Notes: generated from the letters alone by a model not told the origin. Counted from the first letter of the stretch, positions 21,828 to 31,903 are shown. The stretch: DNA of 32,000 bases from Acaryochloris marina S15 (GCF_018336915.1 NZ_CP064923.1:1920001-1952000), one strand, 5' to 3'. Made by a program: numbers and translations.

Positions 21828-23501
21828 ATGGCTGAACAAAAAGTTGGGACTTCAAAACCTATCATCGTGGTTGTGGATGATGATCCTGCGGTTTTACAAG
21901 CCGTTGCTCGGGATCTCCGTAAACAGTATGGCGATCGTTTTCGAATTATTCGGGCTGACTCAGGGGGGACCGCTCTAGATGCGGTTCAACAGCTCAAGCT
22001 GCGGGGTGATATTGTCGCTCTCTTCTTGGTGGATCAGCGCATGCCCCACATGAGCGGGGTGGAATTTATCAAACAAGCCAGTGAGCTTTTCCCCCTGGCG
22101 AAGCGCGCACTCCTGACGGCCTATGCCGATACCAATGCGGCCATTGATTCCATTAACCAGGCTCAGCTAGACTATTACCTCCTCAAACCTTGGGATCCGC
22201 CAGAGGAAAAACTTTACCCAGTCTTAGATGATTTGATTCGGGACTGGCTGGCAACCTTTAAGCCAGAATTCAAAGGGGTGAAGGTGATTAGCGATCGCTG
22301 GTCTCCCCAGTCCCATGCCCTACGGGATTTTTTAGCACGCAACCAAATCCCCTACCGTTGGCTGGATATTGAGAACAATCCAGAGGCTCAGCAACTGGTC
22401 TCTTGTGCTGGAAAAGCAGATTCTCCATGCCTACCCTTAGTGTTACTCCCTAATGGCGAGCAGCTGATCAAACCTGATACGACAAAGCTGGCCCAATCTG
22501 TGGGGATGCAAACAGAGGCTGAGAAACCCTTTTACGATTTGGTGATTGTGGGGGGTGGTCCTGCTGGCTTGGCCGCAGCCGTCTATGGAGCATCGGAGGG
22601 CTTACATACTGTCATGGTTGAACGGGAAGCGCCAGGAGGACAAGCGGGCACTAGCTCTCGCATCGAAAATTATCTCGGTTTTCCCGTCGGATTGAGCGGG
22701 GGCGACTTAGCCCGTCGCGGAGTGACCCAAGCCAAACGCTTTGGAGTAGAAATCCTCACGCCTCAGGAAGTGACGGGGATTCGCATCCAAGATAATTATC
22801 GAATCATTGCCCTTGCCGATGGCAGCGAGATTAGCTGCCATGCCCTCATTTTGGCCATGGGGGTTTCTTGGCGGCGACTGACTGTTCCTGGAATTGATCA
22901 GTTCACTGGGGCGGGGGTTTATTACGGTGCGGCTCAGACAGAAGCTGCCGCTTGCCAAGATGAGGAAGTTTATATCGTCGGGGGAGCTAACTCAGCAGGG
23001 CAGGGAGCCATGTATTTCTCTAAATATGCTCGCAAAGTGCATATTCTGGTGCGGGGGGAGTCCTTAAAGAAGAGTATGTCCCAGTATCTGATCGATCAGA
23101 TTGCAGACACTGAAAATATTGAGGTATTGCCGTTTCACAGTGTAGTAGAGGCCAAAGGGAATGAGCGCCTAGAGCAGCTTCTGATCAAAGATTCTCAAAC
23201 GGATGAGGTCAAAACCTTTGATGCCAATTCTCTCTTCATCTTTATTGGTGCAACGCCCAGTACCGATTGGTTAGAGGGAATGGTTCATCGCGATCAGCGG
23301 GGCTTTATCTGCACAGGCCCAGATATTCCTCAGGAGACCCCGTGGTCTTTGGAGCGAGATCGGTTTTTACTCGAAACCAATGTGCCAGGAATCTTTGCCG
23401 TGGGGGATGTTCGGCATGGTTCGGTGAAGCGGGTTGCCTCTGGCGTGGGAGAAGGGTCCATCTGTGTCCAGTTTGTTCACCGTCATTTGGCCAATGTATA
23501 G
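21828..23501 (+). CDS. Fused response-regulator receiver / glutaredoxin-like / thioredoxin-reductase-like FAD-dependent oxidoreductase
   Basis: IIVVVDDDP...LFLVDQRMPHMSG...YLLKP is the receiver. The middle ~80 aa has a Grx-like layout. DLVIVGGGPAGLAAAVYGA is the FAD GxGxxG motif, VYIVGGANSAGQ the NAD(P) site, and GIFAVGDV the C-terminal FAD motif. Confidence 0.85.
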   Translation: MAEQKVGTSKPIIVVVDDDPAVLQAVARDLRKQYGDRFRIIRADSGGTALDAVQQLKLRGDIVALFLVDQRMPHMSGVEFIKQASELFPLAKRALLTAYADTNAAIDSINQAQLDYYLLKPWDPPEEKLYPVLDDLIRDWLATFKPEFKGVKVISDRWSPQSHALRDFLARNQIPYRWLDIENNPEAQQLVSCAGKADSPCLPLVLLPNGEQLIKPDTTKLAQSVGMQTEAEKPFYDLVIVGGGPAGLAAAVYGASEGLHTVMVEREAPGGQAGTSSRIENYLGFPVGLSGGDLARRGVTQAKRFGVEILTPQEVTGIRIQDNYRIIALADGSEISCHALILAMGVSWRRLTVPGIDQFTGAGVYYGAAQTEAAACQDEEVYIVGGANSAGQGAMYFSKYARKVHILVRGESLKKSMSQYLIDQIADTENIEVLPFHSVVEAKGNERLEQLLIKDSQTDEVKTFDANSLFIFIGATPSTDWLEGMVHRDQRGFICTGPDIPQETPWSLERDRFLLETNVPGIFAVGDVRHGSVKRVASGVGEGSICVQFVHRHLANV

Positions 23502-23513
23502 CTAGGGGTTGCC

Positions 23514-24926
23514 ATGTTGTGTTCACAAGCTTTGTTGCAAATCAAACCCTTTCAGCTGTTGCCGCCGGAGCGGTTGAATTGGATCTGCGATCGCACTCAA
23601 CACATCCAACTTACGCCAGGTGAAGTTCTCGTGCGTGAGGGTGAGCCTCCCCAGGGCTTTTTTATTCAACTGAGTGGTCAAATCACCATTAGCCGCACGA
23701 GCAATGGCGCAAATATGCCTTTGGGCCGTCATGAGAGTCCTTCTTTCTTTGGAGAAATTCAATGCCTGACCGAGGATATCGTCCCGGTCACGTTAACGGC
23801 TGATACCAACACCGACTTGTATCGACTCAATTGTCCTGATTTTTTAGAGGTTCTCCATAGCTGTCGTGACTTTGAAAAAGCCATCTTTCGCACAATGGCG
23901 AAACGCTTGCGCGGTCTAGAATCTTTTATTCAAAGCCGAGAAAAAATGGCGGCCCTAGGAACGCTATCTGCAGGACTTGCCCATGAGCTTAACAACCCTG
24001 CAGCTGCCCTTGTGCGGGTACTCAAGGACGCGAAGCCAGCCATTCTAGAATTACAGCGGATGAATATGGTGTATGGCCAACACCAGGTGAACGATGAACA
24101 TACTCAGCAGTGGTTAACATTACGAGATCATGGGTTTGATGCCATTGCCAACCCTCAAAACGATCCCCTAGCCTTGAGCGATCGGGAAGATGCGCTGACG
24201 GACTGGCTAGAGGACTATGGAGTGGATGAAGCTTGGAAGTTGGCTGAACCTCTAGCAGCAGGCGAAGTAGAGCCTGAAGTGCTTGAGCAACTGATGGACC
24301 GCTGGCGCGACAGTGAGACTGAATTACGAGATATGGGGCTGAGGTGGTTAGCCCTCTCCTTTGATGTCATGGGGATGATTGCCAGAGGTTTAGATGGCGC
24401 AGAGCGAATCTCGACCCTCGTGCAATCCATGAAATCCTACTCCTATATGGATAGAGCGGCACAGCAGGAGGTAAATATCCACGATGGTATTGAGGATACC
24501 CTACGCTTGTTTGCCTTTAAGCTCAAGCATGGCATTAAGGTTGAGCGTCACTACGACCCAAACCTACCTAGAATTATGGCCTTTGGCAGTGAACTGAACC
24601 AAGTGTGGACCAATCTCTTGGACAATGCAGTCGATGCTTTAACAGAAAACCCATCGCCTTCTGTTCCCCCCCAAATTACGATTCGGACGTGCCAAAAGAA
24701 TGGCTGTATCCGAGTTGAGCTTGAAGATAATGGTCCGGGTATCCCGCCCGAGATCAACACCCGCATTTTGGAACCTTTTTTCACCACCAAACCCATGGGT
24801 AAAGGGTCGGGTTTAGGGCTGGATGTCGTCCGTCGGATCGTTGAAAATCGTCATGGTGGCAGCCTGATGGTGGAATCTGAGGTAGGGCGTACCTGCTTTG
24901 CGATCGCACTGCCACTCCCTCAATAA
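23514..24926 (+). CDS. Histidine kinase with N-terminal cyclic-nucleotide-binding-like (CAP/Crp-fold) domain
   Basis: PGEVLVREGEPPQGFFIQLSG...FFGEI shows the cNMP-fold motifs. GLAHELNNPAAA is the H-box, and LLDNAVDA, DNGPGI and GSGLGLDVV are the ATPase boxes. Confidence 0.8.
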   Translation: MLCSQALLQIKPFQLLPPERLNWICDRTQHIQLTPGEVLVREGEPPQGFFIQLSGQITISRTSNGANMPLGRHESPSFFGEIQCLTEDIVPVTLTADTNTDLYRLNCPDFLEVLHSCRDFEKAIFRTMAKRLRGLESFIQSREKMAALGTLSAGLAHELNNPAAALVRVLKDAKPAILELQRMNMVYGQHQVNDEHTQQWLTLRDHGFDAIANPQNDPLALSDREDALTDWLEDYGVDEAWKLAEPLAAGEVEPEVLEQLMDRWRDSETELRDMGLRWLALSFDVMGMIARGLDGAERISTLVQSMKSYSYMDRAAQQEVNIHDGIEDTLRLFAFKLKHGIKVERHYDPNLPRIMAFGSELNQVWTNLLDNAVDALTENPSPSVPPQITIRTCQKNGCIRVELEDNGPGIPPEINTRILEPFFTTKPMGKGSGLGLDVVRRIVENRHGGSLMVESEVGRTCFAIALPLPQ

Positions 24927-25156: not shown

Positions 25157-25228
25157 TGGGCGATACTGGATTTGAACCAGTGACCTCTTCCGTGTGAAGG
25201 AAGCGCGCTACCCCTGTGCTAATCGCCC
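25157..25228 (-). tRNA. tRNA-Val (anticodon CAC); CCA not encoded
   Basis: The minus strand reads GGGCGAT-TA-GCAC-AGGGGTA-GCGC-G-CTTCC-TTCACAC-GGAAG-AGGTC-ACTGG-TTCAAAT-CCAGT-ATCGCCC-A. It has a 7-bp acceptor, a 5-bp anticodon stem and a 5-bp T stem with a TTCAAAT loop. The D stem has one A:C mismatch. Confidence 0.85.
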
Positions 25229-25456: not shown

Positions 25457-25849
25457 ATGAATACTGAAATCTCCAAAAAAAAAGGTTTATCGTCGGCATT
25501 TACCCAGCGACAAGCCAACATAATGGCAAATTTACAAAATCGGATGGATGTTGCGGCAGCCAACCATGACGATCATTTGCTGGAACTACTCACCCATGAA
25601 CGGATCCAGCTTGAATCTCATGGGCCTGATATTTCGCCTCCCTCTCATCGGCCACCCAATGTTATGCAGTTTTGGCAACGCATAGCTAAGGGAATAGCCT
25701 CTCGAAGACAGCTCAGCTTAGAGCGTCGAATCACTTCTAGGGGTGAGGAATGGTGGCATGTTGCCGATCCTTGCTCTGGTAAAACCTTTAATGCTGAATC
25801 CTGGAGTGTCGCTATGCATTGGATTGAGCGGAATCGATTAGGCCACTAA
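25457..25849 (+). CDS. Hypothetical protein (no recognisable family)
   Basis: A 130-aa ORF in an otherwise empty interval with an AT-rich upstream region. There are no motifs I can name. Confidence 0.4.
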   Translation: MNTEISKKKGLSSAFTQRQANIMANLQNRMDVAAANHDDHLLELLTHERIQLESHGPDISPPSHRPPNVMQFWQRIAKGIASRRQLSLERRITSRGEEWWHVADPCSGKTFNAESWSVAMHWIERNRLGH

Positions 25850-25954: not shown

Positions 25955-26875
25955 ATGAAAGTAGTCGTAACAGGTGCAACCGGATTCGTAGGTCAACGCC
26001 TTATTGAACGGTTGAAAGAAGAAGGCCATCAGGTCTTGGCATTGGTCCGGAGTCCCGATAAAGCGGCTAAGCTTTTCCCCTCCCAAACATTCCCTAACGT
26101 AGAAATTCACGGCTATGAGCCCCAAGCTTCAGGCGATTGGCAAAAAGTCCTGTCGGGGTGGGACGGGGTGGTTAATCTGGCTGGAGAACCCCTTGTGGGC
26201 GATCGCTGGACGACTAGCCGCAAACAAGAAATTATTAACAGCCGTGCGGTGGGCACCCAGAAACTGGTGGAGGCTATTGCCGCTGCGGAGGATAAGCCAT
26301 CGGTTTTGGTGAACGCGTCTGCCATTGGGTTTTATGGCACCAGTGAAACGGCCACCTTCGATGAATCGAGCGGCTCTGGCGATGATTTCTTAGCGGAGGT
26401 TTGTCAATCCTGGGAGAAATCGGCCCATACCGCTACGGATGCCGGCACACGATTAGTGATTTTTCGGATCGGCATTGTTCTAGGGGATGGTGGTGCCTTA
26501 GCCAAAATGTTACCTCCGTTTCAGATGTTTGCCGGTGGCCCCATTGGCAGTGGTAAGCAATGGTTCTCTTGGGTGCATTTAGATGACTTGGTCAATTTCA
26601 TCCTTATGGCCCTCACTGATCCTAGTAAGTCTGGGATTTATAATGCTACCGCTCCCAATCCTGTGCGCATGACTGAGCTGTGTGATTCTCTGGGAAAAGT
26701 CCTGAATCGTCCCTCCTGGTTACCCGTCCCGGACGTCGCCCTGGAGCTGCTTTTGGGAGAAGCGGCCCAGCTAGTTCTGGAAGGACAAAACGTACGACCA
26801 GAGAAAACTCAGGCCGATGGATTTCAATATAAATATGAGACGATTGACTCGGCCCTTCAACAGATATTGACCTAA
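25955..26875 (+). CDS. TIGR01777-type NAD-dependent epimerase/dehydratase family protein (YfcH-like, with DUF1731-type C-terminus)
   Basis: N-terminal [11 protein letters not shown] Rossmann motif. The C-terminus [28 protein letters not shown] is typical of the DUF1731 end. The stop overlaps the next start (TAATG at 26873..26877). Confidence 0.75.
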
Positions 26876-28086: not shown

Positions 28087-28443
28087 GTTTCAGTTCGAAA
28101 GCGAAGAGATTTTCGGTAGACATTTGGACTGGAGAGCCTGGTGAGAACTGTCCCTGGCATTGGAACCGCAATCGTGACAATGTCTGGGCAAAAAGCGTGG
28201 CAGGCAAACGGGCCAGACTTTTATCCAAGAATAGGGGAACTCTCAGGGAAAACTCATGCCGCTTAGTTTTAATGGGTCTGAGAACATAAGGGTTAGCTCC
28301 CTAACTCGAATGGCCCATGCACTCTATCCATCTTATCGACCAGCTGAAATTCTCTTGTTTGGTGACTGGCAGCTGCAAAAAACAGATAAACATGGCATAG
28401 TGCCCATGAATGACCATTCATTACAAATCCATCATTGACCACT

Positions 28444-29412
28444 ATGACGTATTTAGAATCCGCAGCAGAGTTTTACAGTCAAGTCGCTGAAACCCCAGAC
28501 GTGGGCTTATGTTGTGTCCAAAGCACTCCTTTGCAACTGCCGGGCCTGGTGGTGCCTCCGCAAATGCAGGAAATGAACTATGGATGTGGCACAACCGTCC
28601 ATCCCACTGAATTGTCGGGTGATCCAACGGTTCTCTATGTCGGTGTCGGGGGAGGATTGGAAGCCCTGCAATTTTCCTACTTTTCCCGTCGCCCTGGAGC
28701 CGTGGTTGCGGTGGATCCAGTGGATGAAATGCGTAAAGCGGCTGCTCGGAACCTAGAGATTGCTGCTAAAGATAATGAGTGGTTTGACCCCAGCTTTGTC
28801 ACGATTAAAGAAGGGGATGCCTTTGCCCTGCCCGTCCCAGATAACTCCGTAGATTTGGTGGCTCAGAATTGTCTGTTCAATATCTTTGAGCCCGAAGATC
28901 TATCCCGTGCCCTCCAGGAAACCTATCGAGTCCTGAAGCCCGGTGGCCGCTTAGTGATGAGTGACCCCATTTCCACTCGCCCTATTCCAGAGCATCTGCA
29001 GCGAGATGATCGGCTGCGGGCCATGTGCTTGTCCGGTGCCTTAACTTATGAACAGTACGTTCAGCGAATTATCCATGCTGGATTTGGACAAGTTGAGATC
29101 CGAGCCCGTCGCCCCTACCGCTTACTCGATCAAGCCAACTACAAGCTAGACCAGCATTTACTCCTAGAGAGCCTAGATTCCGTTTCCTTTAAAATCGATA
29201 TTGCCGATGATGGAGCTTGTGTCTTCACAGGCAAGATGGCGGTTTATACAGGACCCGATGAGTATTTCGATGATCAAGCCGGTCACATTTTGAGTTTAGG
29301 GATCCCCCTAGCCGTTTGCGATAAAACAGCAGCTAAATTGGCAAAAGCTCATCCCCAAGCAATTAAGGTCACTGAGTCTACTTGGTATTACGACGGTGGA
29401 GGATGTTGCTAA
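28444..29412 (+). CDS. arsM: As(III) S-adenosylmethionine methyltransferase-like protein (ArsM/AS3MT type), ending in Cys-Cys
   Basis: The layout is collinear with AS3MT as I remember it: LCCVQSTPLQLP (cf. ACVTTARPVP), NYGCGTTVHP (cf. YYGCGLVIPE), the SAM motif VLYVGVGGG, QNCLFNIF (cf. SNCVINL) and MCLSGAL (cf. ECLGGAL). ATG at 28444; the track start at 28435 is a TTG. Confidence 0.6.
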   Translation: MTYLESAAEFYSQVAETPDVGLCCVQSTPLQLPGLVVPPQMQEMNYGCGTTVHPTELSGDPTVLYVGVGGGLEALQFSYFSRRPGAVVAVDPVDEMRKAAARNLEIAAKDNEWFDPSFVTIKEGDAFALPVPDNSVDLVAQNCLFNIFEPEDLSRALQETYRVLKPGGRLVMSDPISTRPIPEHLQRDDRLRAMCLSGALTYEQYVQRIIHAGFGQVEIRARRPYRLLDQANYKLDQHLLLESLDSVSFKIDIADDGACVFTGKMAVYTGPDEYFDDQAGHILSLGIPLAVCDKTAAKLAKAHPQAIKVTESTWYYDGGGCC

Positions 29413-29445
29413 GCTAAGCCGTTTGTTGTTGTGGATCGAGCTGAT

Positions 29446-30441
29446 ATGACTGTTTCAACTACCCCCTCTCTCACTCCGTTTACCCAGAAGTTAGCTGCTC
29501 CCCTCAGCAAGCAGCCCATTACGGTGCTGCAAATCAATTTGGGGCGGCGGTGCAACTTAGCCTGTAGCCATTGCCATGTGGAGGCCAGTCCGAAACGGAC
29601 AGAGGAGTTATCCCCAGACGTCTGTGATCAGTTGGTTGAACTGATTCATCAATTCCCTCAGATTGAAACCGTGGATCTAACGGGGGGTGCCCCGGAGATG
29701 AATTACGGCTTTCGTCCCCTAGTAGAGGCAGCTCGCTCCCACAACAAGGAAGTCATCGTTCGTTCGAATTTAACCATTTACTTTGAACCGGGTTTTGAAG
29801 ATTTACCCGAATATTTTGCCCAGCATCAACTGCGAGTGGTGGCCTCCCTGCCCTGTTATCTGGAGCAAAATGTAGACAAAATGCGGGGTGATGGCGTCTT
29901 TGACAGCTCAATCAAAGCGCTGCAGCGGTTGAATCAGTTGGGCTATGGCTCGGATCCGAATCTATTGTTGGACCTGGTGTATAACCCCCAGGTGCCCACC
30001 ACCCTGGACTTTGCCCTAGCCCCGGATCAGCAGCCCTTAGAACAGGCCTATAAACAGCACTTAGGGGAGCAGTTCGGAATTACCTTTAATCATCTATTTG
30101 CGATTACCAATCTACCCATCGGTCGCACCAAGTTTCATTTGCAACATCGTCAGCTTCATCAGCCCTATCTTCAGTTTTTGGAAGGCCATTTTAATGACTC
30201 GACGATAGAGCATTTAATGTGTCGCAATGAGCTATCCGTCGATTATCTGGGCAATATCTATGACTGCGATTTCAATCAAATGGAGGAGATTCCAGCTACC
30301 ACCCCTAAGGGGGAGCGGTTAACGGTGAAAAAGCTGTTGGACGCTGGCAGTCTCGATTTAATTGAAGACGTAAAAACAGCGCCCTATTGCTATGGCTGCA
30401 CTGCGGGGAGTGGTTCGAGCTGCGGCGGTTCTTTGTTATGA
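29446..30441 (+). CDS. arsS: Radical-SAM / Cys-rich-tail protein of the ArsS (arsenosugar biosynthesis) type
   Basis: RRCNLACSHC is the CxxxCxxC radical-SAM cluster motif (29551..29574). The Cys-rich C-terminus is APYCYGCTAGSGSSCGGSL. The gene lies directly downstream of the arsM-like gene. An alternative start is the GTG at 29431. Confidence 0.65.
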   Translation: MTVSTTPSLTPFTQKLAAPLSKQPITVLQINLGRRCNLACSHCHVEASPKRTEELSPDVCDQLVELIHQFPQIETVDLTGGAPEMNYGFRPLVEAARSHNKEVIVRSNLTIYFEPGFEDLPEYFAQHQLRVVASLPCYLEQNVDKMRGDGVFDSSIKALQRLNQLGYGSDPNLLLDLVYNPQVPTTLDFALAPDQQPLEQAYKQHLGEQFGITFNHLFAITNLPIGRTKFHLQHRQLHQPYLQFLEGHFNDSTIEHLMCRNELSVDYLGNIYDCDFNQMEEIPATTPKGERLTVKKLLDAGSLDLIEDVKTAPYCYGCTAGSGSSCGGSLL

Positions 30442-30470
30442 CATCACACACATTTTTTAAAGGTAAATCT

Positions 30471-31223
30471 ATGAATGTTCGTCACTGGAAAAAAATCCAA
30501 CCTGTTTTATTAGCAGCTTTAGCCTTTTTGGTGATTACGGCATCTCCTGCTTGGGCCGCAGATGGGGGTGGTTTCAATCCCCAGCAACTGCTTCGGGATG
30601 CCCTGTTATGGGTGAAAGAATTAGGTCCTGTCGGTGCGATCGCATTTATTGGGATTTACATTGTTTCCACCGTTGCCTTTTTGCCGGGGTCCATTTTGAC
30701 CCTAGGCGCAGGGGTTGTCTTTGGAGTGGTTCAAGGATCTTTTTTAGTCTTTATTGGGGCCACTATTGGGGCTACTCTCGCTTTTCTGGTGGGGCGATAT
30801 GCCGCTCGGGGCTGGATCTCTAAAAAAATTGAAGGCAATGATAAATTTGCAGCGATTGATAAAGCGGTCGGTAAAGAAGGGTTCAAGATTGTTCTACTGA
30901 CCCGGCTATCCCCCATTTTTCCCTTTAACTTACTCAACTATGGCATGGGGGTTACGGGAGTTTCTTTAAGAGATTACTTTTTCGGTTCCGTGGGCATGAT
31001 TCCCGGCACCATTATGTATGTCTATCTCGGATCTCTAGCGGGGAATATCGCCACAATCGGCACAGGAGATCAACCCTCTAACCCCACCATTACTTGGGCC
31101 ATCCGCATTATCGGTTTTCTTGCCACGGTTTTAGTGACGGTCTATGTGACTAAAGTTGCCCGAAAAGCGCTGGCAGAAGCCGTTCCTGAAACCGGCTCTG
31201 TGGTAGAGCAAGAATTAAGCTAA
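30471..31223 (+). CDS. TVP38/TMEM64 family (DedA-superfamily, 'SNARE-associated') membrane protein, copy 1
   Basis: FLPGSILTLGAGVVFG...GATLAFLVGRY...LTRLSPIFPFNLLNYGMG is the PF09335-type core. An alternative start is the ATG at 30438, which overlaps the arsS stop (ATGA). Confidence 0.75.
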   Translation: MNVRHWKKIQPVLLAALAFLVITASPAWAADGGGFNPQQLLRDALLWVKELGPVGAIAFIGIYIVSTVAFLPGSILTLGAGVVFGVVQGSFLVFIGATIGATLAFLVGRYAARGWISKKIEGNDKFAAIDKAVGKEGFKIVLLTRLSPIFPFNLLNYGMGVTGVSLRDYFFGSVGMIPGTIMYVYLGSLAGNIATIGTGDQPSNPTITWAIRIIGFLATVLVTVYVTKVARKALAEAVPETGSVVEQELS

Positions 31224-31903
31224 TGCTGCAAGAAGGACTACGCCAACGGCAAGTGAAAGGTCGCAGACGATTACTAGCAGGGGTGGTAGGGGTGTTGTTG
31301 CTTCCCCTAGTCATTCGGTATGGTCCCTTGCTGTTTGACCAGATGCATTTAGTGGAGGTTGTGCAATCCCATGGTTTATGGGGCTACATCATCTTTCTTC
31401 TGCTACATATCGTCGCCACGATGCTGGGTGTCCCTGGTGTTATTCTCACGATTGTGGGCGGTATCTTGTTTGGCCTGCTATGGGGAAGTGTCTTATCCCT
31501 AGTCGGAGCTACCTTGGGAGCTCTGGGAGCCTTCTGGATGGCTCGCTATCTCTTCTTAGATTGGGCACAGAAACGCGTGCGCGATCGCAAGCTCCTCTGC
31601 TCCTTCAATCAGGCGGTCCTCCAGCATCCGTTTAGCTTTGTTCTGATCGTCCGCTTTGCCCCGATCTCACCCTTTAATTTGGTGAATTTCCTGTTTGGTA
31701 TGACTACCATTCACTGGTTTCCTTACAGCTTGGGAACGCTTATTGGCATTATCCCCGGTGTGATTGCCTATACCTGGATCGGCGTCGCTGGTAATGAGGC
31801 GATGCATGGCAAAGGCCCTTGGCCCTTAGTGATTGCCTGTACCTGCCTAGCGATATTGTCGGCAATGCCTTTGCTACTCCGCCAGAAGCGATCGTTTAAT
31901 TGA
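31223..31903 (+). CDS. TVP38/TMEM64 family membrane protein, copy 2
   Basis: GVPGVILTIVGGILFG...GALGAFWMARY...VRFAPISPFNLVNFLFG is paralogous to the upstream gene. Its start overlaps the upstream stop (TAATG at 31221..31225). Confidence 0.75.
   Translation: MLQEGLRQRQVKGRRRLLAGVVGVLLLPLVIRYGPLLFDQMHLVEVVQSHGLWGYIIFLLLHIVATMLGVPGVILTIVGGILFGLLWGSVLSLVGATLGALGAFWMARYLFLDWAQKRVRDRKLLCSFNQAVLQHPFSFVLIVRFAPISPFNLVNFLFGMTTIHWFPYSLGTLIGIIPGVIAYTWIGVAGNEAMHGKGPWPLVIACTCLAILSAMPLLLRQKRSFN

Follow-up and report, generated by a model that had tools for sequence, protein, structure and literature searches.

An arsM-arsS-VTT1-VTT2 unit in Acaryochloris marina S15 and the linkage of DedA-superfamily membrane proteins to arsenosugar biosynthesis genes

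Introduction

Among the major arsenic species of aquatic food webs are arsenosugars and arsenosugar phospholipids. To our knowledge, only the first two enzymes of the arsenosugar pathway have been shown experimentally, and we know of no gene assigned to any membrane step. The closest described system is that of Synechocystis sp. PCC 6803, whose arsM-arsS arsenosugar genes were reportedly the subject of work by Xue and colleagues in 2019. In this cyanobacterium, which makes arsenosugar phospholipids, arsM is slr0303 and arsS is its co-transcribed neighbour; characterised ArsS adenosylates dimethylarsenite and needs a trivalent substrate. The same two enzymes, arsM followed by arsS, are encoded in the 32-kb stretch of the Acaryochloris marina S15 genome analysed here (NZ_CP064923.1:1920001-1952000, here referred to as the window), in which they are followed by two genes, VTT1 and VTT2, for TVP38/TMEM64 membrane proteins of the DedA superfamily. 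This study describes the four-gene unit (28444-31903) and the linkage of VTT-family genes to arsenosugar genes in other genomes, which together make VTT1 and VTT2 strong candidates for the missing membrane step of the pathway.

The next two genes by number after arsM in Synechocystis are listed as a "hypothetical protein" (slr0304) and a Tvp38 homologue (slr0305), and judged by this gene numbering, Synechocystis probably has an arsM-arsS-VTT1 layout as well. In the openly readable literature the Synechocystis system ends at ArsS, whereas the window adds VTT2 with an overlapping start. Slr0305 itself has been discussed in the literature only as a candidate for vesicle formation or thylakoid biogenesis.

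DedA/VTT proteins are nearly universal, and we know of no substrate for the bacterial COG0398 branch, to which YdjX and YdjZ belong. Phospholipid scramblase activity is known for the eukaryotic relatives Tvp38, TMEM41B, and VMP1. According to published counts, a cyanobacterial genome contains on average about 2.0 COG0398 and 1.4 COG0586 DedA genes, and more than half of the Gammaproteobacteria have no COG0398 gene. As reported by Todor et al. (2023), COG0398 DedA proteins lack the acidic residues of the proton-driven DedA transporters, are unlikely to flip undecaprenyl phosphate, and are closest to eukaryotic phospholipid scramblases, while their commonest fusion partner is a reductase. The window VTT proteins share with this subfamily the PF09335 domain, two predicted hairpins, and a non-acidic first hairpin, and the PF07992/PF02852 reductase is the commonest fusion partner among VTT1 orthologues too. 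The only physiological or pathway context so far proposed for the bacterial subfamily is an 'association with aerobic metabolism', whereas the window provides a specific pathway and a paired arrangement.

A second neighbourhood for comparison is the proteobacterial one of ArsS, TIGR04283, and TIGR04282, which is centred on ArsS like that of the window and, in 9 of 24 sampled loci, has a VTT or VTT::reductase gene in the same gene run; it contains glycosyltransferases and a reductase where the window has arsM and VTT1-VTT2 instead. The initial annotation of this DNA stated that the later steps of arsenosugar synthesis are not assigned to genes, which is only partly true, as two NCBIfam families, TIGR04282 and TIGR04283, already bear the name of arsenosugar biosynthesis glycosyltransferases. 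Full-text searches of the open literature found no paper that joins DedA, TVP38, or VTT with arsM or arsenosugars. What is new here is that a known two-gene pathway is extended by a candidate membrane component from a known but functionally unassigned family.

Results

The four-gene unit and its boundaries

The features of the unit are as follows.
28222-28443, + strand: putative leader (non-coding), near-identical among three Acaryochloris lineages.
28444-29412, + strand: arsM, 322 aa, arsenosugar-type arsenite S-adenosylmethionine methyltransferase (NF038099, AsSugarArsM).
29446-30441, + strand: arsS, 331 aa, radical S-adenosylmethionine (SAM) enzyme (TIGR04167), predicted to place 5'-deoxyadenosyl onto dimethylarsenite.
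30471-31223, + strand: VTT1, 250 aa, TVP38/TMEM64 protein (DedA superfamily, COG0398-type; PF09335), Slr0305 orthologue.
31223-31903, + strand: VTT2, 226 aa, second TVP38/TMEM64 paralogue (PF09335).

All four genes lie on the + strand and are as tightly packed as initially described, with distances of 33 nt between arsM and arsS, 29 nt between arsS and VTT1, and -1 nt between VTT1 and VTT2. arsM starts with ATG at 28444 (a TTG lies upstream at 28435) and ends with TAA at 29410-29412; arsS starts with ATG at 29446 (GTG at 29431) and ends with TGA at 30439-30441, so that the proposed gap of at most 33 nt between methyltransferase stop and radical SAM start is exactly 33 nt to this ATG. The overlap between the VTT1 stop and the VTT2 start is found as TAATG at 31221-31225, again as first noted, and VTT2 ends with TGA at 31901-31903. 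A further overlap, between the arsS stop and a possible VTT1 start, had been read from an ATGA at 30438-30441; the sequence is present, but ATG 30438 is unlikely to be the start of VTT1, because VTT1 orthologues (249-261 aa) begin at the equivalent of ATG 30471 (MNVRHWKK...), 28-30 nt after arsS. The sequence AAGG is located 8-11 nt 5' of this ATG. Terminator-like matches within the unit are weak stems of 5-6 pairs, in a number at shuffle level, and a promoter scan gave no more promoter-like matches than shuffled sequence did. Together, arsM, arsS, VTT1, and VTT2 make up a translationally coupled unit that runs in one direction and is preceded by a conserved leader of its own.

The identity of the first two genes, which the initial annotation had assigned as arsM-like and arsS-like, is confirmed by hidden Markov models. 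ArsM scores 571.9 bits on NF038099 (cutoff 400) over the full length of the model (residues 5-325 of the open reading frame (ORF) read from the TTG, against model positions 1-321) and also matches the class I methyltransferase Pfam domains Methyltransf_11, 25, and 31. Cysteines are present at 22/23, 47, 152, and 199 of the 322 aa, a spacing that may resemble that of the four catalytic, As(III)-binding cysteines of characterised ArsM. ArsM of close Acaryochloris relatives likewise has 322 aa. ArsS reaches 423.2 bits on TIGR04167 (cutoff 300), also at full length, contains PF04055, and carries the C-terminal domain PF12345 (DUF3641; 177.9 bits). In an ArsS alignment, C36, C40, and C43 of its CX3CX2C cluster motif are invariant, and near the C-terminus the same holds for C315, C318, and C326 of the motif CYGCTAGSGSSCGG.

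Conserved leader and mobility of the block

The roughly 75 nt that precede the arsM ATG and a second block some 190 nt upstream hardly vary among three Acaryochloris lineages, although the genes further upstream differ between them. The near-invariant 75-nt stretch includes a hairpin, CATGGCATAGTGCCCATG (28391-28408), and a palindrome, ATGAATGACCATTCAT (28406-28421), which lies 23 nt 5' of the arsM ATG. A direct-repeat block, CTTTTATC-N9-GGGGAACTCTCAGGGAAAACTCAT, is found at 28222-28258, the repeat of which can also be given as GGGRAA-N6-GGGAAA. In these lineages the leader motifs occur solely upstream of arsM. Rfam contains no family that matches the leader; the one Rfam match obtained was a tRNA elsewhere in the window. 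Because the leader is near-invariant despite the differing upstream genes, it probably is a promoter, operator, or leader of arsM-arsS-VTT1-VTT2 itself.

In two relatives whose VTT1 is 93% identical (L081 and L082) and in Acaryochloris sp. CCMEE 5410 (L083), which together represent two Acaryochloris lineages, the four genes are contiguous and their flanks have changed: a chemotaxis cluster is inserted or inverted, and the downstream genes differ too. The order arsM-arsS-VTT1-VTT2 is also found in Gloeothece citriformis PCC 7424 (L085) and in locus L094, both of which carry the longer, canonical type of ArsM. The four-gene unit therefore travels as a block between different genomic flanks.

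Upstream of the leader, the window encodes ThyD (NF050030, 517 bits; 25955-26875) and a GT4 glycosyltransferase (PF12000; 26875-28086) with a one-base stop/start overlap. These two genes were considered as members of the unit and rejected, because the relatives keep the four genes without them alongside: in L081-L083 they are 7.5 kb off or absent, separated or replaced by the chemotaxis cluster, with the four-gene block intact. No homologue of either was present in the 80 ArsS loci described below.

Linkage of VTT genes to arsenosugar genes as seen from ArsS

An ArsS-seeded sample of 80 loci, one per species, was assembled (31 cyanobacterial and 49 other), and profiles of VTT, ArsM, the reductase, and the glycosyltransferases were run against the ORFs of these loci, with representatives checked in Pfam and NCBIfam. 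A VTT gene was found beside arsS or arsM in 10 of the 31 cyanobacterial loci. In eight of the 31, arsS is followed by VTT1 within 101 nt, with VTT2 next in five of these eight; no arsM was seen in the retrieved upstream flank (up to 8 kb) of six of them. Two further cyanobacterial loci have the order reductase-arsM-VTT1 at 3-5 kb from arsS, and on plasmid pPg_02 of Pseudanabaena galeata one strand encodes, in this order, a histidine kinase, a response regulator, TVP38, a "mercuric reductase", arsM, TVP38, and arsS.

Outside the cyanobacteria, 11 of the 49 loci have a same-strand VTT gene no more than 3.5 kb from arsS, usually as a fusion of about 716 aa with a pyridine-nucleotide disulfide reductase (PF09335 + PF07992 + PF02852) or as an adjacent pair of VTT and reductase genes. 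The glycosyltransferases TIGR04282/TIGR04283 flank arsS in about half of these non-cyanobacterial loci, and 9 of the 24 loci concerned also have VTT or VTT::reductase; TIGR04283 is present in 9 of the 12 VTT-bearing loci, usually with TIGR04282. No clear relation was seen in non-cyanobacterial loci between VTT and arsM (VTT in 2/10 loci with arsM and in 10/39 without). TIGR04283 is a GT2 enzyme weakly similar to ArnC, PpgS, and AglJ, and is often encoded directly upstream of VTT1. The arrangement is comparable to that of COG0586 DedA/UptA and of the DedA-dependent lipid A aminoarabinose modification, in which a GT2 enzyme acts on a lipid carrier and a DedA protein moves the lipid.

The expectation that TVP38 genes would be enriched beside arsS in other genomes is thus borne out, in several gene orders and phyla. 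With a generous per-locus chance of 0.5-1% and shared ancestry ignored, binomial P values come to about 1e-12 to 1e-14. That the linkage takes various gene orders and spans several phyla speaks for its having been retained repeatedly and independently.

A search for ArsS among 1.84 billion representative proteins gave many ArsS-ArsM fusions and one ArsS-VTT fusion, MDR1775240.1 (P0503), from a metagenome-assembled genome of an actinomycete. Its 651 aa comprise ArsS, a Gly/Ala/Asp-rich linker, and VTT; it forms a singleton cluster on one contig and is either a real fusion or the product of an assembly artefact or a lost stop codon. Flavin_Reduct-ArsS and ArsS-CMD (AhpD-like) fusions were also seen, as were ArsS proteins with N-terminal extensions of about 225-430 aa that match no Pfam family (altogether P0371, P0394, P0372, P0375, and P0379).

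Two other gene types recur near arsS and VTT. Three proteobacterial arsS/VTT/glycosyltransferase clusters contain a PF04116 fatty-acid-hydroxylase gene with weak similarity to OlsE (L033, 9036-9845; L044, 3523-4365; L058, 11082-11885), which hints at lipid chemistry in the pathway. Near cyanobacterial arsS/VTT genes, an OmpR-type, RppA-like response regulator is encoded in L001, L087, and L088 and in 12 ArsS loci, accompanied by a HAMP histidine kinase gene in L087 and L088; this regulator may control the arsS/VTT genes.

Linkage as seen from VTT1, and the reductase partner

The association also holds in the reverse direction. When metagenome contigs were scanned with a VTT1 alignment, 79 loci with relatives of 48-79% identity were obtained, and 28 of these loci have at least 2.5 kb on both sides. 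ArsS, ArsM, TIGR04283, or TIGR04282 is encoded within 3 kb of VTT1 in 16 of these 28 loci (ArsS or ArsM in 14), the labels being confirmed above curated NCBIfam cutoffs. The reductase is adjacent to VTT1 in 11 of the 28 and VTT2 in five, and four have no recurring partner, i.e., no ars-family gene, reductase, or VTT2. TIGR04283 lies directly 5' of VTT1 in eight loci that show no arsS. Whichever gene the search starts from, and in several phyla, VTT-family genes are thus linked to arsS, arsM, TIGR04283, and TIGR04282 far more often than chance would give.

Several loci have tandem or overlapping starts of VTT1 and VTT2. Of 11 informative VTT1-VTT2 pairs obtained with VTT queries, 10 come after arsS, and the ArsS-seeded loci add five; VTT2 is the more context-specific paralogue. 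A VTT1-VTT2 pair without ars neighbours is found in Leptolyngbya PCC 7376, and VTT1 is alone on pAQ7 of PCC 7002.

The gene most often found beside VTT1 or fused to it encodes a MerA-like flavoprotein disulfide reductase of the NF004991 subfamily (about 515 aa), seen in L020, L025, L042, L054, L086, L088-L092, and many of L095-L173. This enzyme has a CLNxGC redox disulfide and a basic amphipathic tail, and since the C-terminal cysteine pair is missing, it is not a true mercuric reductase of the MerA type. It also occurs within operons with arsM, arsS, and TIGR04283 and seems to be a still unnamed component of the arsenosugar neighbourhood. In none of the sampled loci does a single VTT1 adjoin both VTT2 and the reductase. 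The window itself gave no tblastn match to TIGR04282, TIGR04283, or the NF004991-type reductase.

VTT1 and VTT2 as proteins

Both proteins match PF09335 (VTT_dom, cutoff 33.9), VTT1 with 103.5 bits and VTT2 with 81.3 bits, and they are paralogues, as was proposed at first, with 39% identity over 156 aa (E = 7e-33). VTT1 is 67-98% identical to its orthologues across cyanobacterial orders, and a protein with 100% identity to VTT2 is encoded by Acaryochloris sp. 'Moss Beach'. In a published table of cyanobacterial Tvp38 homologues, AM1_5085 is 72% and AM1_5086 39% identical to Synechocystis Slr0305; because of the former value, VTT1 is, by sequence, the orthologue of Slr0305. JGI names VTT1 homologues YdjX (TVP38/TMEM64 family), and no curated NCBIfam model covers the VTT proteins.

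In an AlphaFold2 model of VTT1 (mean predicted local distance difference test score, 79), helix-loop-helix hairpins are formed by residues 53-68/73-84 and 137-146/152-160, the helices of which are broken at the invariant P72-G73 (PG) and P148/P151 (PxxP). The model thus predicts the two re-entrant helix-loop-helix elements of the VTT domain. VTT1 and VTT2 both keep the invariant residues P72, G73, T77, G81, and G85 and R145, P148, P151, F152, and N156. Neither protein has Asp or Glu at the first hairpin (FLPGS in VTT1, GVPGV in VTT2), and this absence of an acidic residue is taken as the COG0398 subfamily signature in both. VTT1 orthologues have an N-terminal hydrophobic segment that ends in A-x-A (AWA in VTT1), is followed by GFNP, and looks like a signal peptide. 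The sequence of VTT1 contains no cysteine. No sequence or fold relative was found in the PDB (best Foldseek E = 0.7, TM-score at most 0.24).

The VTT proteins were also considered as UptA-type carrier-lipid flippases, which was rejected: NF052604 gives 22.1 bits for VTT1 (cutoff 250) and no match for VTT2, and the subfamily features differ. UptA belongs to COG0586; the subfamily of the window VTT proteins lacks the charged residues that are tied to undecaprenyl-phosphate binding and proton coupling.

Other genes in the window

Further upstream, at 21828-23501, the window encodes a 557-aa fusion of a receiver domain and a Pyr_redox_2 domain that is thioredoxin-reductase-like, and the 470-aa gene that follows (region 21828-24926) reads as a histidine kinase from its translated sequence. 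The fusion was rejected as a pathway member, as it belongs to a different reductase family, is distant, and does not accompany the ars unit of relatives. The FA_hydroxylase gene of the window (PF04116, 11377-12150) was rejected as well; it is 25% identical to the genes of the proteobacterial clusters and lies 16 kb away. The window also contains tRNA-Val(CAC) at 25157-25228 on the - strand and a 130-aa ORF at 25457-25849 on the + strand, which has a weak, sub-threshold resemblance to PirA.

Discussion

The linkage described above is best explained by a role of the VTT proteins in moving a lipid of the arsenosugar pathway. ArsM would yield dimethylarsenite, which ArsS would adenosylate to 5'-deoxy-5'-dimethylarsinoyl-adenosine. 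The arsenoriboside would then be built onto a lipid, in cyanobacteria as an arsenosugar phospholipid of the phosphatidylglycerol type and in other bacteria perhaps as a lipid-linked intermediate for which TIGR04283, a GT2-type enzyme, would be responsible. VTT1 and VTT2 would form a heteromeric scramblase or flippase of the COG0398 DedA type that shifts the arsenosugar lipid, or its lipid acceptor, between leaflets or membranes; in other lineages the partner of VTT1 would be the dimeric flavoprotein disulfide reductase, often fused to it, instead of VTT2. By analogy with systems in which a GT2 enzyme works with a flippase, we tentatively propose that VTT1, with VTT2 or elsewhere with the reductase, acts as a DedA-type translocator of an arsenosugar-bearing lipid or its acceptor, a reading with a good chance of being right that nevertheless falls somewhat short of being probable.

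Several observations weigh against this proposal. arsM-arsS loci of Nostocales and Microcystis have no VTT gene in the retrieved flank (up to 8 kb on each side), and the neighbourhood statistics do not account for phylogenetic non-independence. In Nodularia, Lyngbya aestuarii, Xenococcus PCC 7305, and two more genomes, VTT1 is paired with the reductase in the company of thioredoxin, DsbD, or peroxiredoxin genes, and no ars gene lies within 5-6 kb; a pure lipid-flipping model does not explain why the reductase recurs as a partner. Scramblase activity of bacterial COG0398 DedA proteins would follow by analogy with TMEM41B and VMP1, and the VTT1-VTT2 heteromer is deduced from gene order only. Almost all thylakoid-bearing cyanobacteria moreover have a VTT1 orthologue, and homologues of it occur in plant plastids, which suggests a role that is not restricted to arsenic. 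Gloeobacter and Thermosynechococcus have no homologue of Slr0305. The initial annotation had envisaged a "dedicated" DedA-type partner; a partner is well supported by the linkage, but its dedication is doubtful, as VTT1 belongs to the conserved Slr0305 family (70-80% identity across cyanobacterial orders) and many VTT1 orthologues adjoin the reductase away from ars genes.

A different cargo would fit the gene neighbourhoods equally well, as the evidence from them is identical for lipids and for small arsenicals: VTT1/VTT2 might import arsenite or dimethylarsenate, or export dimethylarsinoyl-adenosine or free arsenosugar. As arsM is missing from the retrieved upstream flank (up to 8 kb) of many arsS-VTT loci, methylated arsenic might plausibly be supplied from outside there. 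The part of the window that is annotated (11.4-32 kb) contains no ArsB, Acr3, or ArsP gene, and in the literature DedA proteins have been tied genetically to selenite uptake and indium extrusion. These metal links are, however, indirect and come from other DedA subfamilies, whereas COG0398 lacks the acidic residues within the membrane that are presumed to link DedA transport with the proton gradient, and VTT1 has no cysteine with which to bind trivalent arsenic. Transport of small arsenicals is for these reasons considered unlikely.

The strong conservation of the Slr0305 family, its near-universal presence in thylakoid-bearing cyanobacteria, the plastid homologues in plants, which make no arsenosugars, and the VTT1 loci without ars genes would all be expected if VTT1/VTT2 served general membrane-lipid housekeeping, e.g., thylakoid or envelope lipid homeostasis, with proximity to arsM and arsS due to shared regulation or inherited synteny. 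Inherited synteny cannot, however, explain at least five gene orders or a linkage that extends to Proteobacteria, Oligoflexia, and Actinomycetes. The linkage to three separate arsenosugar families, the ArsS-VTT fusion, and the linkage rate of about 50% seen from VTT1 are left unexplained as well, and housekeeping is accordingly judged to be improbable as the reason for the arrangement.

Finally, the VTT proteins could be part of a membrane thiol/disulfide redox module around the MerA-like reductase that serves ArsM and ArsS indirectly, e.g., by keeping dimethylarsenic trivalent or by re-reducing ArsM, with VTT2 of Acaryochloris replacing the reductase as the dimerising partner. In line with this, ArsS requires a trivalent substrate, VTT1-reductase pairs and fusions are the commonest context of the family (as in Todor et al., 2023), reductase-arsM-VTT1 operons exist, some pairs are flanked by thioredoxin, DsbD_TM, peroxiredoxin, or rhodanese genes, and VTT2 and the reductase appear to be mutually exclusive beside VTT1 in our samples. 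Such a module is nonetheless distinctly unlikely, as the window contains no reductase of the VTT-linked family, the missing C-terminal cysteine pair means that these enzymes do not count as MerA-type metal(loid) reductases, and it is not explained what a transmembrane VTT domain would contribute to a soluble reductase.

Lipid translocation by VTT1, together with VTT2 or the reductase, is the reading that we favour. Its generalisation, that the Slr0305/VTT1 family supplies a widespread bacterial arsenosugar-lipid pathway with its lipid translocator and works with either a VTT paralogue or a dedicated reductase, is possible but rather doubtful. If it is true, a bacterial COG0398 DedA protein would for the first time have a physiological substrate, and the VTT protein and the NF004991-type reductase would be two unnamed additions to the pathway of ArsM, ArsS, TIGR04283, and TIGR04282. 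The linkage raises questions about the role in thylakoid biogenesis that is currently ascribed to Slr0305 and flags the MerA-like reductase as a further likely member of the pathway. With a genomic link that holds in two directions, both the membrane step of arsenosugar synthesis and the question of the COG0398 substrate become experimentally approachable, including in a model organism.

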